64,000 bases of DNA from Alphaproteobacteria bacterium (GTDB lineage Bacteria > Pseudomonadota > Alphaproteobacteria > SP197), in assembly GCA_965242595.1 (NCBI GenBank), contig OZ251464.1:1188301-1252300 (forward strand). The letters are read 5' to 3'. The notes beneath the pieces are model-generated. The model saw only the letters and a program-made list of their open reading frames with translations, had not been told where the DNA came from and did no database searches. Position numbers and translations under genes: made by a program. The first letter of the stretch is position 1. The number at the start of each line of letters is the position of its first letter. This document shows positions 1 to 55,400 of this stretch, piece after piece.

Positions 1-1
1 C

Positions 2-1252: not shown

Positions 1253-1350
1253 TCGCCCCCACCGCGCCGGGAAAGGCCCGGAAAGACAGGGGTGAGAATT
1301 TTCTCCCCCGCCCCCTTGCCAGCGCCGGCGGCGGCGGTTAGGGTGGCGCC

Positions 1351-1671: not shown

Positions 1672-1688
1672 CGCCGCCCCGCCCCGCC

Positions 1689-2573: not shown

Positions 2574-2647
2574 GGCCGCCGCGCCAGCTTGCCCAGGTTG
2601 CAAGGCCTTTTCATTGGCGGCGCCCACCGCCGCCGTCAAGGGCGCGT

Positions 2648-3892: not shown

Positions 3893-3974
3893 GGCGGCGC
3901 GCTCCGGCGCGGGCAGGGGGCGCGCCTGCCGCCTCGAGGCCGCGCCGCCATGCCACCCCGTCCGCAGGCCGCGC

Positions 3975-5195: not shown

Positions 5196-5316
5196 CTCTC
5201 GCTCCCCCTTCAGTGCGCGCGGTGCCCGTCGGCCGGGCGCTTGGCAGAGACTGGCGGGGCGGGCGGGCACGGTCAAGCGGCGGCGCCCGTCGATGCCAGG
5301 TCGATGGCGACCGGCG

Positions 5317-6219: not shown

Positions 6220-6256
6220 GGCAGCTTCTCCCCCCTATTGTTGCGATGCGGCGATG

Positions 6257-6673
6257 CTAGCGCCCGCCGCCCGGCGGCGACAGCCCCGCGCCGCCGTGGC
6301 GGGCGAGCCAGGGCGCCAGCCCGTCCGGGTTCGCCGCCAGGTCGAAGGCAGGCGGCAGCGCCGGATGAAAGCGGGCGCCGCACCCGGCCGCCATGGCGGC
6401 GATGGGGGCTGTGGCATGGGGCGGGCCGGCGAGATGCAGATCGCGCCAGCCCAGGCGCAGGGCGAGCATGGCCCAGCCGGGATCGCTGCCGCAATCCAGC
6501 AGCGCCGGCGGGCTGCCGGCCTGGCGCATGGCCTCCAGCAGATAGCCCGGCCCCAGCCGCGCGCAGGCCTCCGGCGCCGTCACCAGCAGCGCCGTCACGC
6601 CCATGGCGGCGGCGGTGGCGCTGGCGTGGCGGGCCTGCTGCGCGCTGGCGACCAGGATGGCGGGCGCCGTCAT
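6257..6673 (-). CDS. hypothetical protein, translationally coupled to pgk (ATGA overlap)
   Basis: 138-aa ORF starting MTAPAILVASAQQ; its ATG overlaps the pgk stop (ATGA at 6670-6673). No motif recognised. Confidence 0.35.
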   Translation of the reverse strand: MTAPAILVASAQQARHASATAAAMGVTALLVTAPEACARLGPGYLLEAMRQAGSPPALLDCGSDPGWAMLALRLGWRDLHLAGPPHATAPIAAMAAGCGARFHPALPPAFDLAANPDGLAPWLARHGGAGLSPPGGGR

Positions 6674-8007: not shown

Positions 8008-8015
8008 GCGCCCTG

Positions 8016-9023
8016 TCAGAGCAGGGCGGCCATGGCGGCGGCGGTATCGCCCATGCGGTTCGAGAAGCCCCATTCGTTGTCGTACCAGGCCAGCACGCGC
8101 ACGCAGCGCCCGTCGGTGACCTTGGTTTCGGCGAGGTCGAAGGTGGCGCTGGCCGGGTTGTGGTGGAAATCGGCCGAGACCAGCGGCTCGTCCGTCACCG
8201 CCAGCACGCCTTGCAGGGGGCCGGCGGCGGCCTCGCGCATGGCGTCGCCGATGGCCTCTGCCGTGGTCTGGGCCTCGGCCTCGAAGGTGAGGTCGATCAG
8301 GCTGACATTGGGCACCGGCACCCGGATGGCGGTGCCGTCCAGCCTGCCGGCGAGCTCCGGCAGCACCAGCCCCACCGCCCGGGCGGCGCCGGTGGAGGCG
8401 GGGATCATGGAAAGCGAGGCGGCGCGGGCGCGGCGCGGATCGCCATGCAGGCTGTCCACCGGGCGCTGATCGCCGGTGAAGGCGTGGACGGTGGTCATGA
8501 AGCCGTGGCGGATGCCCACCGCACGGTGCAGCACCTGGGCCACCGGCGCCAGGCAATTGGTGGTGCAGGAGGCGTTGGAGACTACCTTGTGAGTGCTGGC
8601 GAGCGCCTGGTGGTTGACGCCATAGACCACGGTGAGATCGGCCCCCGCCGCCGGTGCCGACACCAGCACCCTGGCGGCCCCGGCCGCGAGATGGGCGGCG
8701 GCCTTGTCTCTGGTGGCGAACAGGCCGGTGCATTCCATGGCGATATCGATGCCGAGCTCGGCCCAGGGCAGGGCGGCGGGATCGCGTTCGGCCAGCACGG
8801 CGATGCGCCGGCCGTCCACCTCCAGCCCGTCGCCCACCGCCGCCACCGCGCCCGGATAGGGGCCGTGGACGGAATCGCGCTTCAGCAGCTGGGCGTTGGC
8901 CTGGGGCGAACCCAGATCGTTGATGGCGACGATCTCCAGATCGTCGCGGCCCGCCTCCATGGCGGCGCGGAAGACGAGGCGGCCGATGCGGCCGAAACCG
9001 TTAATGGCGACGCGCGCGGGCAT
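8016..9023 (-). CDS. gap: glyceraldehyde-3-phosphate dehydrogenase
   Basis: MPARVAINGFGRIGR ... SNASCTTNCLAP ... WYDNEWGFS; 335 aa. Strong SD GGAGGAG lies 7 nt upstream. Confidence 0.95.
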   Translation of the reverse strand: MPARVAINGFGRIGRLVFRAAMEAGRDDLEIVAINDLGSPQANAQLLKRDSVHGPYPGAVAAVGDGLEVDGRRIAVLAERDPAALPWAELGIDIAMECTGLFATRDKAAAHLAAGAARVLVSAPAAGADLTVVYGVNHQALASTHKVVSNASCTTNCLAPVAQVLHRAVGIRHGFMTTVHAFTGDQRPVDSLHGDPRRARAASLSMIPASTGAARAVGLVLPELAGRLDGTAIRVPVPNVSLIDLTFEAEAQTTAEAIGDAMREAAAGPLQGVLAVTDEPLVSADFHHNPASATFDLAETKVTDGRCVRVLAWYDNEWGFSNRMGDTAAAMAALL

Positions 9024-9087
9024 GATCTCCTCCGGGACAGCAGCCTTACCTAGGCGATGGCGGCGGCGGCGGTCAACGGTGAGCGCG

Positions 9088-11094
<2,007 letters not shown>

Positions 11095-13502: not shown

Positions 13503-16005
<2,503 letters not shown>

Positions 16006-22194: not shown

Positions 22195-23462
22195 CAGTCA
22201 ACACGACCACATTGGCGGGGGGCATGCGGGTGGCCACCGACGCCATCGCCGGGGCCGAATCGGCCGCCGTGGGGGTATGGGTCGATGTCGGCGCCCGCGA
22301 CGAGCCGGCGCGGCTGAACGGCATCTCCCATCTGCTGGAACACATGGCCTTCAAGGGCACAAGGCGGCGCGATGCGCGCGCCATCGCCCAGGAGATCGAG
22401 GATGTCGGCGGCCATGTCAACGCCTACACCTCGCGCGAATACACCGCCTATTACGCCCGCGTGCTCGCAAACGATGTGCCGCTCGCCATCGAGATCCTGG
22501 CCGATATCCTCCAGAACGCGACCTTCGCGCCCGACGAGCTGGAGAAGGAACGCTGGGTGGTCATGCAGGAGATCGCCCAGGTGTTCGACACCCCCGACGA
22601 CCTGATCTTCGATCTGTTCCAGGAATGCGCCTTTCCCGATCAGCCCATGGGCCGCTCCATCCTGGGCAGCAGCGCGGGCGTGGCGGCGCTGGGGCGCGAG
22701 GCGCTGATCGATTTCATGGGCCGCTACTACACGGCCGATGCCATGGTGCTGACGGCGGCCGGCGCCGTCGATCACGACCGGGTGGTGCGCTTGGCCGAGC
22801 GGCATTTCGCCGGCCTCTCCCCCGCCAACGGCCACACCGCCCAGCCGGCCGCCTATGGCGGTGGCGCGGCCGAGCACGAGGACGATGTCGAACAGCTCCA
22901 CCTGGTGGTGGGCTGCGGCGGCTTCGGCTTCGAAGACGAAGATTACGACCCGGCCCAGCTGCTCACCGGCGCCCTGGGCGGTGGCATGTCGTCGCGCCTG
23001 TTCCAGGAGGTGCGCGAAAAGCGCGGGCTGGCCTACAGCATCTATGCCTTCCATTCCGCCTTCGTCGATAGCGGCCTGTTCGGCGTCTATGCCGGCTGCG
23101 CGCCCGAAGACGCGGCCCAGGTGGCAGAGCTGATCGCCGACGAGCTGCTGCGGGCCGGCGACGGGCTTTCCCCGGAAGAGCTGGAACGCGCCCGCACCCA
23201 GCAGAAGGCCGGCCTGCTGATGGCGCGCGAAAGCACCTCGGCCCGCTGCGAGGCCCTGGCCCGCCAGATGCTGGTCTATGGCCGCCCGCTGCCGCCCGAG
23301 GAGATCGTCGCCCGCCTCGATGCGGTCGGCCCGCGCGAGCTGTGCCGTTGCGCCCGTCGTCTGCTGGCCATGCCGAAACCCACCGTCGCTACCATTGGCC
23401 CCAGGGGCGGTCCCGGGGACGACATGAGCCAGTTCGACCGCATCGCCTGGCGGCTGAACTGA
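22191..23462 (+). CDS. M16 family zinc peptidase (insulinase/MPP-like)
   Basis: Inverted zinc motif GISHLLEHMAFKGT...E...; 423 aa. Its ATG overlaps the thrC stop (ATGA); preceded by GGGGGGAGG. Confidence 0.85.
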   Translation: MTVNTTTLAGGMRVATDAIAGAESAAVGVWVDVGARDEPARLNGISHLLEHMAFKGTRRRDARAIAQEIEDVGGHVNAYTSREYTAYYARVLANDVPLAIEILADILQNATFAPDELEKERWVVMQEIAQVFDTPDDLIFDLFQECAFPDQPMGRSILGSSAGVAALGREALIDFMGRYYTADAMVLTAAGAVDHDRVVRLAERHFAGLSPANGHTAQPAAYGGGAAEHEDDVEQLHLVVGCGGFGFEDEDYDPAQLLTGALGGGMSSRLFQEVREKRGLAYSIYAFHSAFVDSGLFGVYAGCAPEDAAQVAELIADELLRAGDGLSPEELERARTQQKAGLLMARESTSARCEALARQMLVYGRPLPPEEIVARLDAVGPRELCRCARRLLAMPKPTVATIGPRGGPGDDMSQFDRIAWRLN

Positions 23463-23473
23463 AGGCGGCGCCG

Positions 23474-24067
23474 GTGTTCGGCCTTCTGGGCGCGGCTGGC
23501 GACGAAACGGTTCTGAAAGGCGCCGGCGTGGTGCTGCGCCGCCCGCTGGCAGACGATTGGCCCGCCTGGGCGCGGCTGCGCAGCGAAAGCCGCGATTTCC
23601 TGCGCCCGTGGGAACCCGACTGGCCGCGCAACGCGCTCACCCGTTCCGCCTTTCGCCGCCGCTTGCGGGCGCTGGCCCGCGACCGCGAGGCCGGCACCGG
23701 CTTCGGCTTTCTGGTCTTGCGCCGCGCCGATAAGGCGCTGCTGGGCGGGCTGACCCTGTTCGACATCCGGCGCGGCGCCGCCCAGGCCGCCACCCTGGGC
23801 TACTGGATCGGCCAGCGCTACGCCCGCCAGGGCCATATGGCCGATGCCGTGGCGGTGGCGGCGGCCCATGCCTTCGGCCCGCTCGCCCTCCACCGCCTGG
23901 AGGCGGCCTGCCTGCCCGCCAATCTGGCCAGCCGCCGCCTGCTGGAAGGGCGCGGCTTTCGCCTGGAAGGCGTGGCGCGCGGCTATCTGAAGATCGGCGG
24001 CGCCTGGCGCGACCACCTGCTGTTCGCGCTGCTGGCAGGGGAATGGCGCCCCCCCGCGCCGCCATGA
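23474..24067 (+). CDS. GNAT family N-acetyltransferase (RimJ/RimL-like)
   Basis: Acetyl-CoA motif ...GYWIGQRYARQGHMADAV..., plus ...LHRLEAACLPANLASRRLLEGRGF... GTG start at 23474 after AAGGCGG, uncertain. Confidence 0.7.
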   Translation: MFGLLGAAGDETVLKGAGVVLRRPLADDWPAWARLRSESRDFLRPWEPDWPRNALTRSAFRRRLRALARDREAGTGFGFLVLRRADKALLGGLTLFDIRRGAAQAATLGYWIGQRYARQGHMADAVAVAAAHAFGPLALHRLEAACLPANLASRRLLEGRGFRLEGVARGYLKIGGAWRDHLLFALLAGEWRPPAPP

Positions 24068-24738
24068 CGCCGCCGCCGGGGCTGGAAGATGTGCTGGGCC
24101 ACGCCTTTCGCGATGCCGGCCTGTGGCAGCGCGCCGTCACCCATCGCAGCGCGGCGCCGGGCGGCGGCCATAGCTACGGGCGCCTGGAATTCCTGGGCGA
24201 CCGGGTGCTGGGCATGGCGGTGGCGGCGATGCTCTATCGCCACTTCCCGACCGAGCGCGAAGGCCGGCTCTCGCAGCGCTATGTCCAGCTGGTGCGCAAG
24301 GAAACCCTGGCCGCCATCGCCCGCGAACTCGCCATCGGCGACCATCTGCGCATGGCGGCAGGCGAGGAACAACGCGGCATCCGCGACAACCCGGCGGTGC
24401 TGGCCGATGTGCTGGAGGCGCTGGTGGCCGCGCTTTATCTCGACGGTGGCCCCGCGCCCGCCTTCGCCTTCGTGGAACGGCACTGGCGCCCGCATATGAC
24501 GGCCCAGCGCGAGCCGCCGCGCGACGCCAAGACCCGGCTGCAGGAATGGGCGCTGGCGCGCGGCCTGCCGCTGCCGTCCTATCGTCTGCTGGCCCGCAGC
24601 GGCCCGGACCACGCCCCCACCATCGCCGTGGCGGCCAGCGTCGAGGGCCTGGCGCGCCAGGAGGCCAGCGGCCCGTCGCGGCGCGCGGCCGAACAGGAAG
24701 CGGCCAGAAAGCTGCTGGAGAAGGCGGGGGTGCCGTGA
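24064..24738 (+). CDS. rnc: ribonuclease III
   Basis: RNase III signature ERLEFLGDRVLG, a catalytic domain, then a dsRBD (...AKTRLQEWAL...EQEAARKLLE). The ATG overlaps the GNAT stop. Confidence 0.9.
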   Translation: MTPPPGLEDVLGHAFRDAGLWQRAVTHRSAAPGGGHSYGRLEFLGDRVLGMAVAAMLYRHFPTEREGRLSQRYVQLVRKETLAAIARELAIGDHLRMAAGEEQRGIRDNPAVLADVLEALVAALYLDGGPAPAFAFVERHWRPHMTAQREPPRDAKTRLQEWALARGLPLPSYRLLARSGPDHAPTIAVAASVEGLARQEASGPSRRAAEQEAARKLLEKAGVP

Positions 24739-25637
24739 GCGGCGCGGAAAGCCGCTGCGGCACCATCGCCGTCATGGGGCCGCCCAATGTCGGCAAATCG
24801 ACCCTGGTCAACGCCATGGTGGGCGCCAAGGTCTCCATCGTCACCCACAAGGTGCAGACCACGCGCGGGCGCGTCACCGGCATCCGCACCATCGGCGCCG
24901 ACCAGCTGGTTTTCATCGACACCGCCGGCATCTTCCAGCCCAGAAGGCGGCTGGAGCGGGCGGCGGTGGAGGCCGCCTGGGCCGGCGCCGAAGGCTCGGA
25001 TCTGCGCCTGCTGCTGGTGGATGCGGCCCGCGGCCTGCGCGGCCTGGCCCATGTCGCCGACCGTCTGCAACGGCGGCGCCAGAGCGCGCTGGTCGCCGTC
25101 AACAAGATCGACAAGGTCGCCAGGCGGACGCTGCTGCCGCTGGCCCGCGCCCTGGCCGATACCGGCATCGCCCGGGACATCTTCTATGTTTCGGCCACCG
25201 GCGGCGACGGCGTGGGCGAGCTGGTGGAACAGCTGCGCGCCCGCCTGCCGCCGGGGCCATGGCTGTTCCCCGGCGACCGCCCCGGCAACCTGCCGCTGGA
25301 GCGTCTGGCGGCCGAGATCACCCGCGAAAAGCTGTTCCTGCGCGTCCACCAGGAACTGCCCTATGGCCTTTCCGTGGAAACGGAGCTGGTGACCGAGCTG
25401 CCCCAGGATGGCGGGGTCAGGATCGACCAGGTGATCCATGTCGCCAAGGCGGGCCATCGCCCGATCCTGCTGGGCAGCGGCGGGCGCACCGTGAAGGAGG
25501 TGAGCATGGCGGCCCGCAAAGAGCTGGAGGCGATGCTGGGAAGGCGCGTCCATCTCTTCCTCCACGTCAAGGTTTCCACCGGCTGGCAGGACGACCCGGC
25601 GCGCTATGCCGCCATGGGCCTGGATTTTCCGGGCTGA
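24735..25637 (+). CDS. era: GTPase Era
   Basis: G1 GPPNVGKSTL, G3 DTAGI, NKID, and a KH domain at the C-terminus. GTG start overlaps the rnc stop (GTGA). Confidence 0.9.
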   Translation: MSGAESRCGTIAVMGPPNVGKSTLVNAMVGAKVSIVTHKVQTTRGRVTGIRTIGADQLVFIDTAGIFQPRRRLERAAVEAAWAGAEGSDLRLLLVDAARGLRGLAHVADRLQRRRQSALVAVNKIDKVARRTLLPLARALADTGIARDIFYVSATGGDGVGELVEQLRARLPPGPWLFPGDRPGNLPLERLAAEITREKLFLRVHQELPYGLSVETELVTELPQDGGVRIDQVIHVAKAGHRPILLGSGGRTVKEVSMAARKELEAMLGRRVHLFLHVKVSTGWQDDPARYAAMGLDFPG

Positions 25638-33449: not shown

Positions 33450-35798
33450 ATGGGGCTGGACGGGGTCGAAATCGGCCTTCTGATCGTCTTCGCCTGCCTG
33501 TTCGCCGGCATTCTCTCCGGCTATCCGGTGGCCTTCGCCATCGGTGGCGCGGCGCTGGCCGCCTTCGCCATCCTGGCGCTGCTGGGCGATGCCGGCTGGC
33601 TGGTGCGCGAGACCATCGACGACCGCAGCGACGCCTATCGCGCCCTGGTGGAAAGCGGCGTCAGCGAGCACGCCATCACCCTGTTCCGCTATCCCGATCT
33701 GCCCACCTATGCCGCGCCGCTGTTCGAAGGCGGCGCCGAGGGCGCCTTCTTCCGCACACTCGCCTTCGTCGTCAACCGCATGAACGAGCGGGTGCTGGCC
33801 GGCCAGTCGATCGAAACCCTGCTGGCGGTCGCCATGTTCGTGCTGATGGGGATCGCGCTGGAACGCTCGCGCATCGCGCAGGATCTGCTCACCACCATGG
33901 CGCGGGTGTTCGGCGCTCTGCCGGGCGGGCTGGCGGTGTCGGTGGTGGTGGTGGGCGCCTTTCTAGCGGCATCCACCGGCATCGTCGGCGCCACCGTCGT
34001 CACCATGGGCCTGCTGTCGCTGCCTACCATGCTGCGCCACCGCTATGCGCCGGAGCTCGCCACCGGCATCATCTCCGCCTCCGGCACGCTGGGCCAGATC
34101 GTGCCGCCCTCCATCGTCATCGTGCTGCTGGGCACGCTGGCGGGCGATCTCTACGCCACCGCCCAGGAAAAGCGGGCGCTGGCCGCCGGCTGCCCCGACG
34201 CGCTCACCTATCTGGGCGAGGCGGCGGTGGTCTCGGTCGGCACCCTGTTCAAGGCGGCGATCGTGCCCGGCCTGATGCTGGCTCTGCTCTATGCCGGCTA
34301 TGTCTTCGTCTATGCCCTCATGCGCCCCCACAAGGCGCCGCCGGTCCCGGCCGCTGCCGCAGGCGGGGGCGCCACCGTCGCCCTGCCGGCCAGGCTGCTG
34401 TGGCTGCTGGCCGTTCCGGCCATCGCCGTCGCCCTGGCCGGCGGGCTGTTCACCTTCGGCATGGCCGGGCCGCAGGCGCCCGATATCGCCGCCCTGCAAG
34501 GCCAGCCCCCGGCGCCGCAGCTGCGCACCCATGTCGATGAGCGCTGCCAGGCAGCGATGATCGAACTCCACGGCCAACAGGCGTGGGATCGGTCCGTGGC
34601 GGCGCAGGCGGCGCTTGCCGCCCTGGAAACCGCGCCGCCCGAACCGGAGGAGCTGGCCCGCCTGGAAGCCGAAGCGCTGGCCGCCGTGGCGCCACTGGCC
34701 GAAGGCATGGTGGTGGCGATGCTGTTTCTGGCCCTGGTCCTGGCGGTGGCGCGGGGCGTGGCGCCGGATGCGCCGGTGCTGCCGCTGCTGGCCGGCGGCG
34801 GCGGCATCCTGGCGGTGCTGGCGGCCGATGCCCTCTGGGTCGGCCCTCACACCAGCCCCGGCACGGCGGCGCTGATCTATGCGCCACCCTTCGCCGCCGT
34901 CCTCTACGGGCTGCGCCACGCGCTGAAACGGCTGGCGGCGGTGGAGCTGCTGCGGGTGGTGTTCCCGCCGCTGGTGCTGATCGTGGCGGTGCTGGGTTCC
35001 ATATTGGGCGGCATCACCAATCCCACGCCGGCGGCGGCGCTGGGCGCGGCCGGCGCGCTGATGCTGGCCGCCCATCGCAAGCTGGCAGAGGCCGGCAGGC
35101 GCCAGGGCATGCGCTTCATCCTGATGGCGGCCTTCGCCATCGTCGTCTTTCTGCTGGTGGGCGTGAACTTCGACCTCAGAACCTCCATCGAGGAGGTCGG
35201 TTTCGAAAACTGGACCGCCTTCGCGGTTGCGGCCCTGGCCTATCACCTGGCCTTCGCCGGCTTGGTCTATGCCTGCTGGGTGCTGCTGAGGGGCGGCGTT
35301 CTGACCTCGGTGGTGCGCGATACCGCCAAGGTCACCGCCATGGTGTTCGCCATCCTGATCGGCTCGCAGATGCTGAATCTGGTGGTGATCTCGTTCGGCG
35401 GCGAAACCTATATCCAGGATCTGCTGCGCTCCTTCGACGAGGAATGGATGGTCTTTCTGGTGGTGATGGCGGTGCTGTTCGTGCTGGGCTTCGTGCTCGA
35501 TTTCCTGGAGATCATCTACATCGTCATCCCCATCGTCGGCCCGGTGATCTATGGCGGCGCGCTGGATCCCAAATGGGTCACGATCATGATCGCGGTCAAT
35601 CTGCAAACCTCGTTCCTCACCCCGCCCTTCGGTTTCGCCCTGTTCTATCTGCGCGGCGTGGCGCCTCCCGGCATCACCACCGGCCAGATCTACCGCGGCG
35701 TCGTGCCCTTCGTCGTCATCCAGATGGTGGGGCTGGCCCTGATGTGGCTGGCCCCGGAGATCGTGACCTTTCTGCCAGACCTGCTGCCGGAAAACTGA
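33450..35798 (+). CDS. dctM: TRAP transporter large permease (DctM family) with a long Ala/Pro-rich inserted loop
   Basis: 782 aa, many transmembrane helices with DctM-like N- and C-terminal halves, and a roughly 200-aa low-complexity insertion in the middle. Confidence 0.8.
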   Translation: MGLDGVEIGLLIVFACLFAGILSGYPVAFAIGGAALAAFAILALLGDAGWLVRETIDDRSDAYRALVESGVSEHAITLFRYPDLPTYAAPLFEGGAEGAFFRTLAFVVNRMNERVLAGQSIETLLAVAMFVLMGIALERSRIAQDLLTTMARVFGALPGGLAVSVVVVGAFLAASTGIVGATVVTMGLLSLPTMLRHRYAPELATGIISASGTLGQIVPPSIVIVLLGTLAGDLYATAQEKRALAAGCPDALTYLGEAAVVSVGTLFKAAIVPGLMLALLYAGYVFVYALMRPHKAPPVPAAAAGGGATVALPARLLWLLAVPAIAVALAGGLFTFGMAGPQAPDIAALQGQPPAPQLRTHVDERCQAAMIELHGQQAWDRSVAAQAALAALETAPPEPEELARLEAEALAAVAPLAEGMVVAMLFLALVLAVARGVAPDAPVLPLLAGGGGILAVLAADALWVGPHTSPGTAALIYAPPFAAVLYGLRHALKRLAAVELLRVVFPPLVLIVAVLGSILGGITNPTPAAALGAAGALMLAAHRKLAEAGRRQGMRFILMAAFAIVVFLLVGVNFDLRTSIEEVGFENWTAFAVAALAYHLAFAGLVYACWVLLRGGVLTSVVRDTAKVTAMVFAILIGSQMLNLVVISFGGETYIQDLLRSFDEEWMVFLVVMAVLFVLGFVLDFLEIIYIVIPIVGPVIYGGALDPKWVTIMIAVNLQTSFLTPPFGFALFYLRGVAPPGITTGQIYRGVVPFVVIQMVGLALMWLAPEIVTFLPDLLPEN

Positions 35799-36525
35799 CC
35801 CGCCCCAGCTCGCGCCAACCGCCGGCCTCCAGCGCCTCCAGAGGGCGAAAACGGACCTTGTAGTCCATCTTCGGCGAGCCTTCGATCCAATAGCCCAGAT
35901 AGACATGGCCCAGGCCCAGGGCGCGCGCCCTGGCCACATGCCACAGGATCAGCCAGGTGCCCAGGCTGCGGCGCGCCAGCCCCGGTTCGTAGAAGGTATA
36001 GACGGCGGAAAACCCGTCGCTCAGCCGGTCGGTCAGCGCGGCGGCGACCAGCCGGCCGCTGCCGTCGCGGGCCTCCACCAGCCAGGTGGCCACCGGCGTT
36101 TCTTCCACCATGGCGCGGAAATCGGCGAACGACATCGCCGCCATGGCGCTGCCCGCATGATGCGCCCGCTGATAGCGCGCGAACAGCGCATAGTGTTCGG
36201 GCGTGGCCACCGCCGCCGCAGCGCGGACCTCCAGATCGCCGTTGCGCCGCCAGCTGCGCCGCTGCGAGCGCGACGGGCGGAACCTGGCCACCGGGATGCG
36301 CACGGGAACGCAGGCCCGGCAGCCCGCGCAGACCGGGCGATAGGCAAAGCCATGGCTGCGGCGAAACCCGGCCCCTACCAGCCGGTCGTGAAGGGCGCCG
36401 GCATCCGCCAGCCCCAGCTCGGTGACAACCTTGCTCTCCGCCCGCCCCGGCAGATAGGAGCACGGCTCTTCGCGGGTGCCGAAGAAGAAGACAGGCCCGC
36501 CGCCACTCTCATGTACCCTCGCCAC
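35716..36525 (-). CDS. bpt: arginyl/leucyl-tRNA-protein transferase (Bpt/Ate1 family)
   Basis: Bpt signatures CSYLPGR, GFRRSHGF and CxxCRxC (CAGCRAC), plus a GNAT-like C-terminal half. Start is GTG at 36525 or TTG at 36531. The 3' end overlaps the convergent dctM by 83 bp. Confidence 0.75.
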   Translation of the reverse strand: MARVHESGGGPVFFFGTREEPCSYLPGRAESKVVTELGLADAGALHDRLVGAGFRRSHGFAYRPVCAGCRACVPVRIPVARFRPSRSQRRSWRRNGDLEVRAAAAVATPEHYALFARYQRAHHAGSAMAAMSFADFRAMVEETPVATWLVEARDGSGRLVAAALTDRLSDGFSAVYTFYEPGLARRSLGTWLILWHVARARALGLGHVYLGYWIEGSPKMDYKVRFRPLEALEAGGWRELGRVSFPAAGLAERSRSPGPATSGPAPPSG

Positions 36526-36541
36526 GGCCAATCTATAACCA

Positions 36542-36552
36542 CCCCCCCCCCC
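36542..36552. repeat. C11 homopolymer (G11 on the bpt coding strand) about 12 nt upstream of the bpt start, at the island junction
   Basis: accCCCCCCCCCCCtcatcc read directly. Confidence 0.9.
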
Positions 36553-36633
36553 TCATCCACCATGCGCTTTGGCGCCTTCCGGGTGTGAATGACAACGGAA
36601 CGAGACACAAACATAGGGTGTAGGAGGGATGAA

Positions 36634-39600
36634 TCATGAGAGGTCAGGCTGCGGCGCCGTCGTCTCGCCATCCGACATCTCTTCGTCTGCCCCAGCCTCA
36701 ACGGCCTTGCGAGACTTTCGATCCTCTTCAAGAAGTCGCTCGAGTTGGTCGTGGATCCTTTTGGCAGTAGCATCGGGGTTCCGAAACCAGTCGGTCGACC
36801 AGACCCGAAGAATCGTCCAGCCAAGCTCCTCCAGCACAGCTTGGCGGAGCTTGTCGCGATCACGTGCCGTCGCTGAGGAATGATACCGAGCTCCATCGCA
36901 CTCAATGCCCGCAAGATAGTTCCCAGCAGCGTCAGGATGGATGACTCCAAGATCCACGCGAAAACCGGATACCCCGATCTGGGTGCGGATTTCCCATCCC
37001 TTTGCGCGAAACGCCTCAGCCACCGCTTCCTCGAAAGGGCTCTCCGCGGGACCGAGGGAACCTTCATCACGAGAAAACAGTGCGATGGCCCCTCGCTCTG
37101 CGTAGTCAAGAAAGCTCTTGAGGTGTTTTACCCCGTCGGCCCGTGTGCGTCCGAGATCGACCTGTTCAGCCTGGATCGAAGAAAAGACATGAAGCTCGCG
37201 GCGTGCTCGGGTGATAGCGACATTGAGGCGTCTCTCCCCTCCTGTATCGTTGATTGGGCCGAAGTTCATCGTAAGTTTACCGGCACGATCAGGTCCAAAG
37301 GTGATTGAGAATAATATCACATCGCGCTCATCTCCTTGGATGTTTTCGAGATTTTTCACAATGACTGGTTCCTCGCGCTCATCTGAAAAAAACCATTCCA
37401 GGCGAGGATCTTTTCGACAAATCTGGTCGAGAAAATCCTGGACCAGAGACTGCTGTTGAATATTGAAGGTAATGACACCAAGGCTATGGCGATCACTTTC
37501 AGGGACCGCAAGCCAATCCGTGAGGCGCTGCCTCACTACTTCAGATATTGCCTTCGCCTCCTTCTCATTCACGCGAGCCTGCCCCCGCGCGTACACTCCG
37601 TCGACTTTGTGGAATTTGACCGCTTTGGAACCGGTAGAAGGTGCCGGGAAAGTAACAAGCCTGTCATTGTAGTAAAAGTGGTTGGAGAAGGCGATGAGAG
37701 CCTCGTCGCGACTCCGGTAGTGCCATTCGAGGCGTCGCTGGCGAACTCCTGCGGTCAAGACTTCTTCCAGGATTGATGGTAAGTCGCGTTCAAACTCCAG
37801 AAAATCTTCATCTTCGTCATCGGCACGTCCAAAGAAATACGTCGGTGGAAGTTGCATAGGATCACCTACAACGATTGTCTGACGAGCTCGTGCAATGGCG
37901 CCGATTGCATCCCAGGTCGTGATTTGAGAGGCCTCGTCAAAAATGACAAGGTCGAAGGTCGTGTGATCTGCTGGGAGATACTGGGCTACAGACAGAGGAG
38001 ACATCAACACACACGGCGCAAGTTTTCCGAATGTCTTTGGAAGATTTGTCAGAAGTTGACGAATCGGCATGGAGGGGCGTTTGAGTCCAAGTTGGTGTCG
38101 GAGAATTCCGGGTTCAGATCTCCTTGTCACAACGTCTTTCGCCGGGAGCCCGTGGTCAATACGTCGCATCACCTCAGCAGGCGCAAGCTCCGCCGCGATA
38201 CCATCGAGTTTGCGGAAGTTCTCAACAACGTTTCTATGCTTCCAATGGATGAAGCGTCGAAGCTCGTCGCTTGCATCCATTGCAAGAGGTAGCCACCAAG
38301 CTGCATAAGACTGTTCGAATGCCTCTTCCGCCGACCCTTCGATTAACCCAGACTCAAGTGCCTCAAGTAGTGGACCTAGCCCACGTTGTTTCGCACGATT
38401 GGATTTTTCTACCCACTGGGCCCAGTCAACAAGGTGTGCGCGCTCGGTCACAATGGTAGACAGAGCTACCTCAATCTCCGTAACGCTCAATCCATTAGGA
38501 ATCACACCACCCTTTTGTGCAAAAGCATGAATTCCTTCACGGATTTCTTCTTCTGCAGAGAGATACGCTTTGAGAACATCGAGAAGAGCCCCGGGGGAAG
38601 CTGAACCAAGGGTGTCCATAGCCGACTCAAAGCGAATCGAATTTTCTGCTTCTGAACGTAGATTGGATACAGCTTTCCGAAATGTGATAGCCTGTCGCAC
38701 GACTTCCGTCGATTGTGTCACATCCGTTCCATCAAGAGTTTTAGCAACCTGTTCAATGGGGTTTTCGTGGATAGCACGATCTCGCTCCTGCACCACGAAA
38801 AGTGCTTTCAAGTCCACGCTAGGATCGGCTAAACCGCTGTCAGCGTAGGTTTGTAGAAGTTTCCGAACCTTCTTCTGTGCAAAAATGGAAATGGGCCAGA
38901 ATTTCGCCTGAGCTTCGCGCCAACTTACGTCCAACTGCTCAAGAGCCATTCTTCGCACCGTATCAAGCGAATAGGTAGCCATTGTGCTGGACACCGCGGT
39001 GTCGCGTTCTCTAACATCTTTCGAAAATGCTTCAGCCAGCAGTGAGAGTTGCTCGGCAGGCAAATTGGGCACAGATGAGAAATCGAGTGCAGAGCTTTCT
39101 GTACGGGATGCGAGAGCCATGAGGCGTGTGCGACGCCCGCTCTCAAGGTTCGGATTTGAACAAAGGCCGAGCCCGCGGGCGAGTGCGTGTTCCGCCTGCC
39201 TCAAACGGGTAAGTGTCGCGCGGAGGGTCTCCACAACCTCAAGGAGTTCAGTTTCCCACTTGTGGGACCAATGCTCGCCGCGAACAAAAGAAAGGGCAGG
39301 TCTGTCCTTGACTACGTCATGCGTCTGCGCAAGTTCGACGGCAAGTGACACCAAGTTTCGGTAACTCTCCACATCATGTGCGTCCTTGGAGGTGAAAGAG
39401 AGTTCGAAGAGTGCCTTGCCGCGAGCGATACGAGTCACTGCTTCAAAGACGCTGAACCCTTGAGTTCCCTTGGCGTGGAGAGCCTGAACATAGGCATTCA
39501 AACGATCTCGTGACAGCTTCAAATCTTCAGTGACTCGGATCCACTTCTTTTCGTCTGTATCGGGGGAACGATCCCATCCGCGACCGAGTTGTGCAAGAAC

Positions 39601-41892
39601 CGATTTACGGTCGGTTTTGTTTGAGTGAAGTTCGAGTACTGCATCACCAAGGCCGGTTTTTGCCAAGCGGCGATGCACAACATCGAGCGCCGCCGCTTTC
39701 TCGGCAACGAAAAGCACAGTCATACCCTCACCCAGGCACTGGGCAATGATATTGGTGATGGTCTGGCTCTTTCCGGTTCCCGGCGGTCCGATGAGGACGA
39801 AGTCACGGCCCTCCGAAGCTGCAACGACTGCGGCAAGCTGTGAACTGTCCACCGACAACGGGGTAAGGAGGTCCCGTGGGGTGCGACGTTGATCAATCTC
39901 TTCTGGGGCGATATCGATGCCCGATTCAGATCTTTCGTGTGAGTATTCAGTCTCGCCGATAAGATATTTCACCAAACGATTCTTGCGAAGCTCCCTTTCG
40001 CGATCAACAAGATCTTTCCACATCAAATATTTTGCAAAAGAAAACGTCGAAAGTGCCAATTCCTCAACCACTTCGAAGCCTGTGATGTTGCGCACCTTGC
40101 GACGTATAGTGTCGAAAACAAGCGGAAGATCAATGCCACTCTCGTCGCGTGGTAACTCACCCTCAAGTTCCGGGATTCGAAGATCAAAGTCTCGCTTCAG
40201 GAACTCCAATAGAGTGAGATTAAATCGGACGTCGTCTTCGTGGTGCGCGATTCGAAAGGGAGATTGGGCGGAACGGCGTTCGAGTTTGGTTGGCACCAGG
40301 ATTAAAGGCGCATGATAAAGGCGCGTATCGCCTTCCGTCCTCTTCCAGCGCAGGAATCCTGCAGCGAGGAAGAGTGTGTTCGTGCCACCTTCCTGCATGT
40401 CGCTCTTTGCGCGGCGGTAGAGGGTTAGCAGGCGGCTATTCATCTCTTTGCTAGTGAGTGGAACGACGAGTTGACGACACTCGAAGGCATCACGAATTAC
40501 ATCTTCCTCTATTCGTTGCGCTTCTTGAGGGGAGACGGTACGGTTGCCAATAGGATCCTCGTCGTTGAGCGAAAGTGTGCGGAACTTCTTTCCGGCAGCG
40601 AGAGCGTCTTCGAGAGTGCCAACATCGGGGCAGCGCAGAGGCAGGGTCTGCTTACTTTCACGGTAGTTGAGAAGTCGATTACGAAGCGAGAGGTCAAGAA
40701 GCTTGCGCTGCCAGCGTTTGATTCGATCCTGGGGCGTGTCTGGTTCCTCTTCTCCAATCTCGCTCGGAAGAAGGCCGAAATCGGGTAATGGTGGAAGGGC
40801 GGCGGGTTTCACGTCGTCCGATGAGCTGGAATCGGGCGAATCCGGTGCTCTGTGGCTCGCGAGCGGGCGAATCCGCGCCGAACGGGAGCGCGAGATATCA
40901 ACTGCGATCACGAACTCCGGGTCGCGGTCCTCCGAGAAACGACGTCGGCCCTCGTCGACTGCTTGATCAAAACGAATCGAAGGTCGGCTGGTCAAGAGGG
41001 TAGTTTCGATTGGCACGAACTCCCGGGCTTGCACAGCCTTGCGGATGGCGACCACATCGGGCTCCGTCACATGGCCGAAATCTCGTTTGCAAACCCAGAC
41101 GCCGACCCAGGCATGACCTTGAGAGAACAGGACGACCGAATTGAGACCGGCAGCCTCGAAGGCTGCGGCAAGGAAAAGGGAAGAATCGAGGCAAGTCGCA
41201 AGACCCTCCCTTGTCATCCGGCCAGGGCTCCGAATTTTTTGACCCTCCCGTTCGAACGAGGTGGGTGGTTCGGCATATGTGAGTCCCAAGCCAGTGGTGG
41301 CCGACCAGATGGCGGCGGCAAGAAGATATGCACGCCTTGGGTCTCCAGACTGATAGCCGTTCATTGAACCGTCCCGGCCCGCGGCTTCCAGAATCCGCGC
41401 CGCGTCTTTCACCACATCTGCAATAGCCGAATCGTTCGGAGAGACGAACGCCGCAAGAATCTGGGCCATGTCGCCCACTCCACCCCACTCGTCGCGCGCA
41501 AGAAGGTCGATCTGGCACTTCTCCTTGAGTGTTGGAATGTCCTTTGCCTCTAAGCTGAACTCGAGTTCTCCAACCTCCGCTTCGTCGAGGCCTGCCAAGT
41601 GTTCGATATCGAGGGACGTGGTCATGTCGCGGACCGCGAACTCCTCCCCACTCCCGATCCGATCGACGTTCCATATCTTCTCTCGGATGACGGGCGGTGC
41701 GGAACGGAGCGTGATCCGCACATCCGTGAGGGCCTCAGCAGTAAGGTTGTTAATCGCGAGCCGCTCGATGATCGTGACGCCGTTCTGGGCGGAGGCAAAG
41801 TTGACCCTCCGCAAAACTTGATGCTGGAGAGATACGACGCCGGATTCCTTCTGCCCGCCGTGAACATCGATGTTGTTGTTATCGTTTGACAA
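36634..41892 (-). CDS. giant multidomain protein: TGc-like domain, DUF4011-like region, Upf1-like SF1B helicase, C-terminal Vsr/DUF559-like endonuclease; candidate defense helicase-nuclease
   Basis: Upf1-like SF1B helicase motifs: Walker A VLIGPPGTGKSQTI; FDLVIFDEASQIT (motif II); TIVVGDPMQLPP (III); YRSRDEALIAFSNHFYY (IV); QGDERDVILFS; NVAITRARREL (VI). DUF4011-like LLDLSLRNRLLNY upstream of the helicase. C-terminal GFRVDLGV...YLAGIECDGARYHSS..RDRDKLRQAVLEELGWTILRVWSTDW is DUF559/Vsr-like (REase_MTES_1575-type). N-terminal GLATCLDSSLFLAAAFEAAGL ... GHAWVGVWV ... PIETT looks like a transglutaminase-core Cys/His/acid triad. GC is about 50% against about 68% in the flanks. The listed ORF begins at a TTG at 41985; a better start is the TTG at 41890-41892, 8 nt after GGAGGAG (41901-41907), exactly where GC drops. 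Confidence 0.85.
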   Translation of the reverse strand: MSNDNNNIDVHGGQKESGVVSLQHQVLRRVNFASAQNGVTIIERLAINNLTAEALTDVRITLRSAPPVIREKIWNVDRIGSGEEFAVRDMTTSLDIEHLAGLDEAEVGELEFSLEAKDIPTLKEKCQIDLLARDEWGGVGDMAQILAAFVSPNDSAIADVVKDAARILEAAGRDGSMNGYQSGDPRRAYLLAAAIWSATTGLGLTYAEPPTSFEREGQKIRSPGRMTREGLATCLDSSLFLAAAFEAAGLNSVVLFSQGHAWVGVWVCKRDFGHVTEPDVVAIRKAVQAREFVPIETTLLTSRPSIRFDQAVDEGRRRFSEDRDPEFVIAVDISRSRSARIRPLASHRAPDSPDSSSSDDVKPAALPPLPDFGLLPSEIGEEEPDTPQDRIKRWQRKLLDLSLRNRLLNYRESKQTLPLRCPDVGTLEDALAAGKKFRTLSLNDEDPIGNRTVSPQEAQRIEEDVIRDAFECRQLVVPLTSKEMNSRLLTLYRRAKSDMQEGGTNTLFLAAGFLRWKRTEGDTRLYHAPLILVPTKLERRSAQSPFRIAHHEDDVRFNLTLLEFLKRDFDLRIPELEGELPRDESGIDLPLVFDTIRRKVRNITGFEVVEELALSTFSFAKYLMWKDLVDRERELRKNRLVKYLIGETEYSHERSESGIDIAPEEIDQRRTPRDLLTPLSVDSSQLAAVVAASEGRDFVLIGPPGTGKSQTITNIIAQCLGEGMTVLFVAEKAAALDVVHRRLAKTGLGDAVLELHSNKTDRKSVLAQLGRGWDRSPDTDEKKWIRVTEDLKLSRDRLNAYVQALHAKGTQGFSVFEAVTRIARGKALFELSFTSKDAHDVESYRNLVSLAVELAQTHDVVKDRPALSFVRGEHWSHKWETELLEVVETLRATLTRLRQAEHALARGLGLCSNPNLESGRRTRLMALASRTESSALDFSSVPNLPAEQLSLLAEAFSKDVRERDTAVSSTMATYSLDTVRRMALEQLDVSWREAQAKFWPISIFAQKKVRKLLQTYADSGLADPSVDLKALFVVQERDRAIHENPIEQVAKTLDGTDVTQSTEVVRQAITFRKAVSNLRSEAENSIRFESAMDTLGSASPGALLDVLKAYLSAEEEIREGIHAFAQKGGVIPNGLSVTEIEVALSTIVTERAHLVDWAQWVEKSNRAKQRGLGPLLEALESGLIEGSAEEAFEQSYAAWWLPLAMDASDELRRFIHWKHRNVVENFRKLDGIAAELAPAEVMRRIDHGLPAKDVVTRRSEPGILRHQLGLKRPSMPIRQLLTNLPKTFGKLAPCVLMSPLSVAQYLPADHTTFDLVIFDEASQITTWDAIGAIARARQTIVVGDPMQLPPTYFFGRADDEDEDFLEFERDLPSILEEVLTAGVRQRRLEWHYRSRDEALIAFSNHFYYNDRLVTFPAPSTGSKAVKFHKVDGVYARGQARVNEKEAKAISEVVRQRLTDWLAVPESDRHSLGVITFNIQQQSLVQDFLDQICRKDPRLEWFFSDEREEPVIVKNLENIQGDERDVILFSITFGPDRAGKLTMNFGPINDTGGERRLNVAITRARRELHVFSSIQAEQVDLGRTRADGVKHLKSFLDYAERGAIALFSRDEGSLGPAESPFEEAVAEAFRAKGWEIRTQIGVSGFRVDLGVIHPDAAGNYLAGIECDGARYHSSATARDRDKLRQAVLEELGWTILRVWSTDWFRNPDATAKRIHDQLERLLEEDRKSRKAVEAGADEEMSDGETTAPQPDLS

Positions 41893-41964
41893 TTTCTTCT
41901 CTCCTCCAGGCTTCCCCTTCGGGGGATCCCGGCTGCTCGACACCCCGAATGCGCCCCGCGAATC

Positions 41965-41992
41965 TTCTAAGGCCGAACGCAGCAATTTTCAA
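41965..41992 (-). promoter_or_regulatory. candidate sigma70-like promoter for the island gene (TTGAAA-N16-TTAGAA)
   Basis: On the minus strand: TTGAAA (complement of 41987-41992), a 16-nt spacer, then TTAGAA (complement of 41965-41970). It lies about 75 nt upstream of the proposed TTG start, and a small CCCCC-GAA-GGGG hairpin sits in the leader. Motif-by-eye only. Confidence 0.25.
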
Positions 41993-42317: not shown

Positions 42318-43142
42318 ATGTTCGCAAGGACGCTGGCAGGCTTGAGGGCGGCGGGCGAAGAGAAGGTCGTCGCCCACGGCAAGGCGCGGGTGGTGCGCCT
42401 GGTGACGCGCCGCGACGGCATGGGCTTTTCCATGTCGGATGTGCGCGTCGCTGCCGGCGTGGTGAGCGAGCTTTGGTATAAACACCATTGGGAAGCCAAC
42501 TACATCGTCGCCGGCACCCTGGGCGTGGAGGAGGTGAACGGCGGGCGTTCCTGGACCCTGGGGCCGGGCGGCCTCTATTGCGTCGGGCCTCGCGACCGCC
42601 ACCGCCTGCGCGCGGTGAGCGATGTGCAGGCCGTCAGCATCTTCAATCCGCCGCTGACCGGCGACGAAAACCACGACAACGACGGCGCCTATCCGCCCGG
42701 CGGCGATGTTCCGGAGGGCCAGCCAGCGATGTTCGTGCGCACGCTTGCCGAGCTGCGCGCCGCCGGGCGGGAGATGACGGTGGCCGATGGCAGCGCCCGC
42801 AGCCTGCGCATGGCGCTGAAGGCCGACGGGCTGGGTTTCTCGGTCAGCGATGTCCGGCTGGCGGCCGGCAGCCGCAACAGGCTTTGGTATAAGAACCATT
42901 GGGAGGCCAACTATGTCCTGGCGGGCAAGGGCGCCGTCACCGCCCTGGCAACGGGCCAGGAATGGGCCCTGGCGCCCGGCATGCTCTATTGCGTCGGCCC
43001 CAGCGACCGCCACGCCATGCACGCCCACAGCGATCTGCACCTGGTCTCCATCTTCTGCCCGGCGCTGATGGGCCACGAACAGCACGACGCCGAAGGCAGC
43101 CTGGCCGCCAGCGGCCCCGTGCCGCCCGGCCCTTCCGCCTGA
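42318..43142 (+). CDS. tandem double-cupin protein with two ectoine synthase (EctC)-like domains
   Basis: Two consecutive copies of about 137 aa, each with the EctC-like WYKHHWEANY(I/V)(V/L)AG and L(Y)CVGP(R/S)DRH motifs. No ectA or ectB nearby. The ORF begins at 42213, but MFARTL (42318) matches the start of the second copy (MFVRTL). Confidence 0.7.
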   Translation: MFARTLAGLRAAGEEKVVAHGKARVVRLVTRRDGMGFSMSDVRVAAGVVSELWYKHHWEANYIVAGTLGVEEVNGGRSWTLGPGGLYCVGPRDRHRLRAVSDVQAVSIFNPPLTGDENHDNDGAYPPGGDVPEGQPAMFVRTLAELRAAGREMTVADGSARSLRMALKADGLGFSVSDVRLAAGSRNRLWYKNHWEANYVLAGKGAVTALATGQEWALAPGMLYCVGPSDRHAMHAHSDLHLVSIFCPALMGHEQHDAEGSLAASGPVPPGPSA

Positions 43143-52414: not shown

Positions 52415-55400
52415 TCAGGAAGCCTCGCGGCGGGCATAGAGTCGTTCCGCCCGGGCCATATCGACCGAGACCAGCTGCGAAACCCCGGCCTCGCCCATGG
52501 TCACGCCGAACAGGCGGTCCATGCGGGCCATGGTCATGCGGTGGTGGGTGATGATCAGAAATCGGATGCGGCCGGGGCGGGCGAACTCGTCCAGCAGGTC
52601 GCAGAAACGCTCGACATTGGCATCGTCCAGAGAGGCATCGACCTCGTCCAGCACGCAGAGCGGCGACGGGTTGGTGAGGAACAGGGCGAACACCAGGGCG
52701 ATGGCCGTCAGCGCCTGCTCGCCCCCCGACAGCAGCGACAGCGCCTGCAACCGCTTGCCCGAGGGGCTGGCCTCGATCTCCAGACCGGCTTCCAGCGGGT
52801 CGTCGCCGGCGGTCATCTTCAGCCGCGCATGGCCGCCGAACAGGCGCGTGAACAGGCGCTGGAAATGGCCGTCGATCTCTTCGAAGGCGGCCTTCAGGCG
52901 CTGCCGGCCTTCGCGGTCCAGTTCGGCGATGCCGTGCCGCAGGCGGGCGATGGCGGCCTCCAGGTCGGCGCGTTCGGCGATCATGGCGGAAAGGCGGCGC
53001 TCGATCTGGTCGGCCTCGCCCTCGGCGCGCAGATTCACCGCCCCCATGCCGTCGCGCTCCTGCGCCAGGCGGCGCCAGCTCCGCTCCAGATCCTCGGCCG
53101 TTCCCAGCCGTTCGCCTTCGCCCCGCGCCGCCAGCGCTTCGGGCGCCAGCTGCAGCCGCTCGCCGATGCGCCGGGCGATCTCGTCGGCCGCCTGGCGCGC
53201 CCGTTCCACGGCGCCGCTGCCATGGGCGCGTTCCTCACGGCGGTCGGCCAGGCGCCCTTCGGCCTCGCGCAGGGCGCGGTCCGCCGCCGCCAGCGCGTTC
53301 TCGGCCTCCGCCCGGCGGTCGCTGGCGCGGCGGTGCCCGGCCTCGGCCGCCGCCAGCTTTTCGGCCAGCGCCTGGCGCTGGCGGGCGATGCAGGCGGGCT
53401 GCGCCGCCAGCGCCTCCTGCTCGCGGCGCCCGTCCTTGCGCTGGCGCTCCAGCCCGGCGATGCGGGCGCGGGCGCTCTTTGCCCGTTCCTGCCAGGATTT
53501 TCGCTCGCGAGCGATGGCCGCCAGCCGCGCGCGGCGCAATGCGGCCTCGTTGCCCAGGCGGTCGTGCTCGCCCTGGCGGCCGGTCAGCAGCTCGCGCTGG
53601 CGCCGCAACTCGCCGCGCAGGGCATCCAGCCCGTCGTCGGCGTCCGCCGGCGGCATGGCGGCCAGCTCGCGCGCCGTCCGCTCCCGCCCGGCGGCGATCT
53701 CGTCCCGCTCGGCGGCGATGCGCCGGGCGATGGCGGCAAAATCGCGCCTTCTGGCGGCGGCGGCCTCCATGCGGTCCTCCTGCCGCCGCCGCGCTTCGCG
53801 GGCCTGCGCCAGCGCCCGGGTGGCCCTGTCGTCGCTGTGGCGGGCGCCGTCCTCGCCATCGCTGGCTTGCGCCAGGGCGGCGCCGGCGGCGCCCAGCGCC
53901 TGCGCCGCCTCCTCCCTGGCGCGGGTGGCGGCGGCGATCTCGCCCGCCAGCGCCTGCAGCCGCGCGCGGCGCGCCAGACGCGCGGCGGCCCCGTCGCCGG
54001 CCCGGCGGTGAACGAAACCGTCCCAGCGCCAAAGCCGGCCAGAACGGCTGGCCAGGCGCTGGCCGGGCTTCAGCAGGCGCGCCAGCCGGTCGCCATCGCC
54101 ATCCGCCACGATGCCGGTCAGGGCCAGGCGCCGCGCCAGCTCCGGCGGCGCCCGGACATGGCGGCTCAGCGGCTCGGCGCCGGTGGGCAGGGCAGGGGCG
54201 TTCTCCAGCGGCGGCAGCAGAGTCCAGCCGGCCGCCGCGTCCTGGCCCAGCGGAGCGTCCAGATCGTCGCCCAGGGCCGCGCCCAGGGCCGCCTCGCAGC
54301 CCTCCGCTACCTGCAAGCTGTCCAGAACGGGCGCGCCGGCCTCGTCCGGCCCGGCCAGGGCGGCCAGCGCGTCCCGTTCCGCCCGCAGCCCGGCCAGCGC
54401 CGCCTCGGTGTCGCGCATATGGGCGCGGCAGGCGTCTTCCCGCTGGCGTCCTGCGCGCGCCGCTTGCCGGGCGGCCTCCAGGCCGCGCCTGGCGGCCGCC
54501 AGCGCCTTTTCGGTTTCGGCCTCCACGCTCTTCAGACGGGCGGCGCTCTCGCCATCACCGCCTTCCAGGCGCTCTTGCCCGGCGGCGATCTCGCCCGCCT
54601 GGCTCTCCAGGCGGGCGCGGCGGCGGTCGAGTTCGGCGGCGCGTTCTTCCAGCGCCCGGCGCGCGGCCTGGCGCCGCGCCCGTTCTTCGGCCAGGGCGGT
54701 CGCCTGCGCTTCCAGGGCGGCGGCTGTGGCTGCGGCCTGTTCCAGCGCGGCCCGCGCCGCGTCCATGGCCGCATCCTCGCCCGCCCGCAACTGCGTCAGG
54801 CGCGCCTCTTCCTGCCCCAGCCCGGCCAGGGCGCGCCCGGCATCGTCATCCAGCGTGGCTTCCCGCTCCAGGTCGGCGCCGATCCGCTCCAGCTGCCGGG
54901 CCAGGTCGCGGCGCCGATCCTCCAGCCGGTCATCCTCCGCGTCCAGCGCCACGCCGGCCAGCCGCAGCTCGCCCAGGGCGCCGCCGGCCTGCGTCTCGCC
55001 CGTTCGCGCCGGCGCCAGGGCGGCGGTGGCTTCGGCCTGGCGGGTCGCCGCCGCCGCCGCCAGGCGGGTGGCCTGCTCCAGGGCGGCCTGCACCGCCGCC
55101 AGCGCCCGTTCGCTCGAAGCCAGCGCCGCCCGGGCGTCCTGCCAGCGGCGCAGCAGCCAGCGCCCTTCGGCCGCGCGGATGCGCTCGCCCAGGCGGCGAT
55201 AGCGCCTGGCCTGGCGCGCCTGGCGCTGCAAGGCGTGCAGCTGCTCTTCCAGCCCGCCTGCGGCATCGCCCAGCCGTTCCAGATTGGTTTCGGCGGCGGC
55301 CAGCCGCAGCTCCACCTCGTGGCGGCGCGCCTGCAGGCCGGCGATCCCCGCCGCCTCCTCCAGCACCTGGCGCCGGGCCTGGGGGCGGGCGCGGATCAGG

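Follow-up and report, generated by a model that had tools for sequence, protein, structure and literature searches.

A probable ProA-family anti-phage helicase-nuclease, sister to Hhe, in a one-gene insertion of an alphaproteobacterial genome

Introduction

Hhe is a single-gene, experimentally validated defence system whose product carries, in this order, DUF4011, a split Upf1-like helicase and an MTES_1575/Vsr-like nuclease. According to work in E. coli, it defends against lambda, T3, T7 and PhiV-1, and its weak activity against T7 is lost in the nuclease mutant E1731A (10.1101/2022.06.16.496414). Its triggers include several class II DNA-metabolism genes of T7 as well as g40 of Bas63, which is toxic only in combination with hhe (10.1101/2024.10.10.617714), and a phage-encoded inhibitor of hhe has been reported (10.1101/2024.04.14.589459). 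Here, we analyse a gene with the same core in a stretch of 64,000 nucleotides, henceforth the window, from an alphaproteobacterium (assembly GCA_965242595.1, contig OZ251464.1, positions 1,188,301 to 1,252,300). The gene occupies positions 36634-41892 of the window on the minus strand, and its product is probably a single-polypeptide anti-phage helicase-nuclease of the ProA family, a sister family of Hhe, which entered this genome horizontally as a one-gene insertion.

In terms of domain content, ProA is an Hhe-like core with a beta-sandwich and a transglutaminase-like (TGc) domain in front and, usually, DUF3320 behind. An earlier interpretation of the window, in the following called the sequence-only reading, had taken the gene for a candidate undescribed single-protein defence system; it judged the kind of gene correctly, but not its novelty.

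Family assignment and relation to Hhe

The window protein scores 1971.1 bits on the NCBIfam equivalog model NF058533, 'anti-phage protein ProA', the cutoff of which is 1500, with residues 31-1736 aligned to profile positions 1-1722. It shares with ProA the order of modules (sandwich and TGc, DUF4011, split superfamily 1B (SF1B) helicase, MTES_1575) and the intact catalytic motifs, and is 43-58% identical to plasmid-borne members, but is devoid of the C-terminal DUF3320 region (profile positions 1723-1903). The relatives P0002, P0092, P0183, L002, L003 and L019 likewise pass the cutoff; the highest score seen, 2372 bits, belongs to the 2221-residue protein of L019 (5911-12576), which is encoded on a conjugative plasmid (MOBH/MPF_G) of P. 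aeruginosa. The latter protein is annotated only as 'DUF3320 domain-containing protein', and its gene has a ParDE toxin-antitoxin pair and the bacteriocin gene paeM in its vicinity.

The PADLOC check proposed by the sequence-only reading yields the candidate system PDC-S37, the PADLOC counterpart of ProA, as best model (1146 bits, residues 388-1734; 36634-40729, minus strand), followed by Hhe at 552 bits. As PDC-S37 aligns only from residue 388 onward (profile position 7), the sandwich and TGc module falls outside that model. The statement that no named system has this architecture thus fails, given the passed ProA cutoff, PDC-S37 as best PADLOC model and a core that is the one of Hhe. As far as can be told from its sequence, the gene is genuinely of the defence type but does not represent an undescribed system, and its description as a single-polypeptide helicase-nuclease of defence type is supported.

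As a reference for Hhe we used the copy on a Klebsiella plasmid, WP_021314612.1, which is annotated as hhe. With the window protein it shares 41% identity over the last 545 residues and 35% over 312 residues around DUF4011 and Walker A. Its DUF4011 begins at residue 30, so that there is no beta-sandwich/TGc module, and Pfam finds no DUF3320 in it. Hhe likewise has a long gap between the two helicase halves, although the central insertions of the two proteins do not align. On the NCBIfam Hhe model NF042953 the window protein obtains 818.5 bits, below the cutoff of 2000, and the Klebsiella Hhe obtains 2735 bits on this model and 1131 on that of ProA, which is below 1500. A shared core combined with reciprocal scores below the cutoffs argues for ProA and Hhe being sister families. 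Like Hhe, the window gene is a single-gene unit: across the seven homolog loci that we examined for their context (L011-L017), there is no conserved neighbour or partner gene.

The resemblance to Mokosh suggested by the sequence-only reading stands as regards the Upf1-like helicase that both have in common, and extends to nothing beyond the helicase region. The PADLOC matches to MkoA (105 bits) and MkoC (94 bits) fall far short of family level, the window protein has no PLD nuclease by Pfam and no MkoB partner, and its own nuclease is of the PD-(D/E)xK type; the fusion of a helicase to a PLD-type nuclease that characterizes type II Mokosh (MkoC) is not found. The eukaryotic helicases Upf1, Sen1, IGHMBP2 and Dna2 possess the same SF1B motor motifs, but differ in their accessory domains, and the window motor carries an insertion of 490 residues. 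Dna2 also couples a PD-(D/E)xK nuclease to such a motor, but at its N-terminus.

Gene and domain architecture

A single long open reading frame (ORF) fills the low-GC (guanine plus cytosine) stretch of the window on the minus strand, extending over 36634-41985 when counted from the first in-frame TTG. The start at 41892 is a TTG too and gives 1752 residues, in line with the approximately 1750 previously stated; in an alignment of homologs, most full-length sequences begin at the corresponding residue.

36634-41892, minus strand: proA-family gene of 1752 codons plus stop (stop codon 36634-36636), defined by the ORF, the homolog starts, NCBIfam ProA (1971 bits) and PADLOC PDC-S37 (1146 bits)
41901-41907, minus strand: Shine-Dalgarno sequence GGAGGAG, separated by an 8-nucleotide spacer from the TTG start, read directly from the sequence

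Among 538 alignment columns with at least 97% conservation, the window protein deviates at seven, to be compared with a median of five (interquartile range 2-7) in the homologs. The gene appears free of any sign of decay, and this copy is most likely still functional. The deposited protein (P0001, 1611 residues) starts at an internal methionine 141 codons past the TTG at 41892 (41470-41892, minus strand); the public gene call is therefore 141 codons late and cuts the conserved N-terminal beta-sandwich off in the annotation.

From the N- to the C-terminus, the following parts can be distinguished, all on the minus strand:

41503-41835, minus strand: N-terminal beta-sandwich, residues ~20-130 (AlphaFold2 model)
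40873-41478, minus strand: TGc (papain-like) domain, residues ~139-340, with C234, H260 and D279
40198-40704, minus strand: DUF4011, residues 397-565 (Pfam PF13195, E 2.4e-46, full profile 1-158)
39466-39849, minus strand: N-terminal part of helicase domain 1A, residues 682-809 (Pfam AAA_30, AAA_19 and AAA_11; PDB match to IGHMBP2 residues 189-254)
39766-39789, minus strand: Walker A motif GPPGTGKS, residues 702-709, invariant in homologs
37993-39465, minus strand: insertion of ~490 residues between helicase motifs I/Ia and II, residues 810-1300, conserved among homologs
37180-37971, minus strand: motif II DEASQ, motif III GDPMQLPP and domain 2A (QGDERD, NVAITRAR), residues 1308-1571 (Pfam, PDB)
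36742-37035, minus strand: MTES_1575/Vsr-like PD-(D/E)xK nuclease, residues 1620-1717 (Pfam PF18741, E 8e-36; overlapping weak DUF559 match, E 1.4e-5)
36637-36741, minus strand: short low-complexity C-terminal tail, a linker after the nuclease, with DUF3320 absent (homolog comparison)

All motifs on which the sequence-only reading had built its domain assignment, namely LLDLSLRNRLLNY, GPPGTGKSQTI, DEASQ, GDPMQLPP, QGDERD, NVAITRAR, IECDGARYHS, RDRDK and GWTILRVW, are present in the translation, and the Pfam searches it had proposed support DUF4011, AAA_11, AAA_12 and MTES_1575, and weakly DUF559. The C-terminal part of AAA_11 covers residues 1308-1353, and AAA_12 covers residues 1373-1571 (E 2.2e-16). 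The solved structures nearest in sequence are those of IGHMBP2, Sen1, Upf1 and Dna2, the part from motif II through domain 2A matching Sen1, Upf1 and Dna2, which together with the Pfam matches confirms the core as a Upf1-like SF1B helicase. No useful match to the insertion of ~490 residues was returned by Pfam even at E=10. The C-terminal nuclease is indeed Vsr-like rather than of the PLD type. In an alignment of 28 family members, Walker A, DEASQ, GD..QLPP, QGDERD and TRAR are invariant, as are the nuclease residues D1647, E1664, D1666, K1681 and Q1684.

For the N-terminal 395 residues, Pfam likewise gave nothing useful at E=10. An AlphaFold2 model built with 57 homologs (pLDDT 76.9, pTM 0.75) consists of a beta-sandwich, residues ~20-130, followed by an alpha/beta domain, residues ~139-340. 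With this two-domain model, Foldseek found transglutaminase matches of only ~118 columns, which possibly concern the sandwich; the TGc fold was settled by a separate model of residues 135-345. The TGc-fold proteins listed comprise axonemal TGc-domain proteins, PNGase, LapG, TglA, PeiW, Rad4/XPC, TG2, TG3 and arylamine N-acetyltransferases. C234 forms the N-terminus of a helix (234-247) and H260 the start of a strand (260-266) in the model, matching the TGc fold, such that the hallmarks of the TGc cysteine protease superfamily are found together: a papain-like alpha/beta fold, a cysteine at a helix N-terminus, a histidine on the following strand, and an aspartate. Conservation was assessed in 132 representatives of clusters at 50% identity that are 30-75% identical to the window protein; C234 and H260 are each retained in 131 of them, D279 (as D or E) in 125, and Q218 in all 132. 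The TGc assignment and the extra N-terminal region of the sequence-only reading are hence borne out by the model fold, in which the first ~345 residues form the sandwich and the TGc domain, and by the near-invariant Cys-His-Asp triad. Judging from this conserved triad in the predicted fold, the TGc-like domain looks enzymatically competent. A search of 1.84 billion representatives found the N-terminal domain in 3151 clusters, 717 of them at E<=1e-30; in the complete proteins among those listed, it heads chains of ~1700-2300 residues.

Composition and genomic context

The GC content of the window is about 71%, and drops to 0.44-0.63 between ~36.5 and 42.1 kb. The gene itself has a GC content of 0.545, compared with 0.71 for the remainder of the window, the deviating stretch measuring 5.4 kb. 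At third codon positions (GC3), the value is 0.56, as opposed to 0.86-0.91 in the adjacent genes, which marks the gene as foreign and little ameliorated. The isolated low-GC island of the sequence-only reading is thus real and consists of one gene. The gene is best explained as a horizontally acquired insertion of a single gene, with bpt on one side and an ectC-like gene on the other, both of which are host flanks outside the system:

35716-36531, minus strand: bpt-type aminoacyl-tRNA-protein transferase (Pfam ATE_N and ATE_C; GC ~0.70-0.76)
42318-43142, plus strand: tandem double ectoine-synthase-like cupin ORF (Pfam Ectoine_synth in two stretches)

A plus-strand ORF at 35905-36588, for which Pfam gave no match, was discarded as the flanking gene; this position is taken by the minus-strand bpt. 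The ORF directly upstream of the island (42318-43142, plus strand) unites two ectoine-synthase-like cupin domains in a single frame. The neighbourhood further includes a TRAP transporter, an AlgH-like gene, a redoxin, an APH-family kinase and IspH. No Rfam family was found around the island, and promoter and terminator matches showed no excess. Elsewhere in the window, there is a second GC dip (0.61) with strongly negative AT skew at 14000-16000 and an unusually GC-rich stretch (0.78-0.80) at 53000-55000.

Absence of DUF3320

The ProA profile is matched only up to position 1722 of 1903, and it is the positions from ~1723 to 1903 that make up DUF3320. Close homologs, of which 120 were listed, share 61-77% identity with the window protein and are mostly ~1995 residues long; of the 117 that were aligned, roughly 100 run ~245 residues (PF11784) beyond the end of the window protein. 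No remnant of DUF3320 was detected by tblastn downstream of the gene or elsewhere in the window; high-GC host sequence begins within ~100 bp past the stop, with bpt on the same strand.

Might this copy then be a ProA remnant, truncated at the C-terminus and inactive, that lost DUF3320 at insertion or by a later deletion and, with it, its defence function? The incomplete profile match and the extra PF11784 residues of most close homologs would fit such a history, as would the position of the stop codon in the linker at the edge of the low-GC island, with no trace of DUF3320 thereafter. However, the reading frame of 1752 codons is intact and preceded by a good ribosome-binding site, and the number of conserved residues lost, seven against a family median of five, is in the normal range. 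Moreover, the short form is not peculiar to the window: 17 of the 118 aligned sequences (homolog set P0002-P0132, window protein included) are without DUF3320, that is, 16 of the 117 close homologs are equally short. As 15 of these have almost exclusively long forms for nearest relatives, DUF3320 has been lost repeatedly and polyphyletically in otherwise intact genes. At two short-form loci (L012 and L017) an unrelated gene follows, so that DUF3320 is truly absent there, and the Klebsiella Hhe has no Pfam DUF3320 either. Given the 16 short homologs, and with the short P0092 scoring above the ProA cutoff, membership of the family does not appear to require DUF3320. We therefore consider an inactive remnant unlikely, if still the most serious of the alternatives.

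Distribution and neighbourhoods of homologs

Members of one close cluster, which shares 71% identity with the window protein, derive from metagenome-assembled genomes (MAGs) of Nitrospira, and related proteins occur in Kushneria, Akkermansia, Solibacteraceae and Planctomycetaceae. Conjugative and mobilizable plasmids are frequent carriers of the family: relatives are found on 484 plasmid records, of which 214 are conjugative, and full-length relatives on 71 plasmid records, mostly alphaproteobacterial megaplasmids, where the annotation of 2024 knows them only as DUF3320 or DUF4011 proteins. A scan of genome contigs with the Walker A pattern, which is promiscuous, produced ten loci with five full or near-full relatives. 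A phage origin was considered and rejected, since the family is all but missing from phage genomes, with a relative present on just one unannotated 11-kb 'Bacteriophage sp.' contig. The surroundings of the homologs in the seven loci are as follows:

L011: serine recombinase, M78/DUF4411, PIN
L012: metabolic genes only
L013: CRISPR-Cas (Cas3, Cas4-Cas1 fusion, Cas2) directly adjoining, and McrBC (1-9591 and 22894-25328)
L014: TrwC relaxase, adjacent GmrSD type IV restriction gene, patatin (7712-9775)
L015: transposases and integrases
L016: metabolic genes only
L017: two AlbA_2/Schlafen-like genes

In the neighbourhood check that the sequence-only reading had called for, defence or mobile-element genes thus adjoin in several loci, and purely metabolic ones in L012 and L016. 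Taken together, the distribution is that of a mobile, stand-alone gene of predicted defence type, not of a member of a housekeeping operon.

It is in this light that a housekeeping or repair function has to be judged, in which the helicase-nuclease would deal with stalled forks, R-loops or mismatches rather than with phages. Upf1-like helicases and Vsr-like nucleases also serve in RNA and DNA quality control and repair, and the purely metabolic surroundings in the window, as in L012 and L016, would suit a repair enzyme as well. Speaking against it are the GC deficit of 16 points with its unameliorated codon usage, the close homologs in unrelated lineages including the Nitrospira MAGs, the frequent residence on conjugative and mobilizable plasmids, and the CRISPR-Cas, McrBC, GmrSD and recombinase genes that adjoin in other loci; in addition, the family is curated as anti-phage, and its relative Hhe has been validated in experiments. 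A repair role is thus still less likely than a truncated remnant. That plasmids or conjugative elements rather than phages are the main target, the protein serving in entry exclusion or as a weapon in competition between elements, is highly improbable, for despite the many plasmid-borne relatives, one by a TrwC relaxase in a region resembling an integrative and conjugative element and another on the conjugative plasmid of P. aeruginosa, the window gene is chromosomal with no mobile-element genes nearby, and the related Hhe acts on phages.

Discussion

What can be said about the role of this gene? With the ProA model passed over nearly all of the protein, an intact set of helicase and nuclease motifs, and a foreign composition confined to one gene, we favour its assignment as a ProA-family anti-phage helicase-nuclease. 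A number of observations weigh against this assignment, however. The experimental support for ProA comes down to the curated label given by NCBI, and neither a paper naming ProA nor a mention of PDC-S37 was found in the literature searched. The ten nearest genes of the window gave no match to PADLOC models, so that no defence genes adjoin, and the surroundings of the island yielded no tRNA, no integrase and no meaningful direct or inverted repeats at its flanks. Two of the seven homolog loci are purely metabolic, and P. aeruginosa has a related DUF4011 gene among its conserved core genes (PMC10250203), a point that would also speak for a repair enzyme. Finally, about 85% of the close homologs keep DUF3320, which the window copy does not have; as its stop lies ~100 bp from where the GC content rises to the host level, DUF3320 could have been cut off when the gene was inserted.

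If the protein is an anti-phage helicase-nuclease, its domains and the work on Hhe suggest how it might act. Loading on nucleic acid and translocation at the expense of ATP would fall to the split Upf1-like SF1B motor together with the DUF4011 region, and the motor would respond to structures or activities arising from phage DNA metabolism. This response may license the C-terminal Vsr-like PD-(D/E)xK nuclease, whereupon DNA would be cut and phage replication would come to a halt, possibly at the cost of the cell. The N-terminal sandwich and TGc-like domain would add what is probably an active thiol enzyme, be it a protease, an isopeptidase or a transglutaminase, in the role of a sensor, a regulator or a second effector.

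A bolder proposal, which we put forward only tentatively and hold to be rather doubtful, is that the TGc domain is an active thiol protease, isopeptidase or transglutaminase that provides a second, protein-directed activity, and that the recurrent forms without DUF3320, the window copy among them, are a functional minimal version of the system. In that case, TGc would sense or cleave a phage protein, or would process the protein itself and thereby release the helicase-nuclease; ProA would be mechanistically distinct from Hhe, and DUF3320 would be shown to be dispensable.

In kind, there is little new in this gene, since annotation models already name its family and the sister Hhe has been tested. 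What it offers is a clean natural example: a lone ProA gene, inserted into a high-GC genome and set off by sharp borders in composition. The points of interest are modest, and lie in the role of the strictly conserved TGc-like triad and in the dispensability of DUF3320; as a natural variant without DUF3320, the window copy could show which modules are needed for defence.

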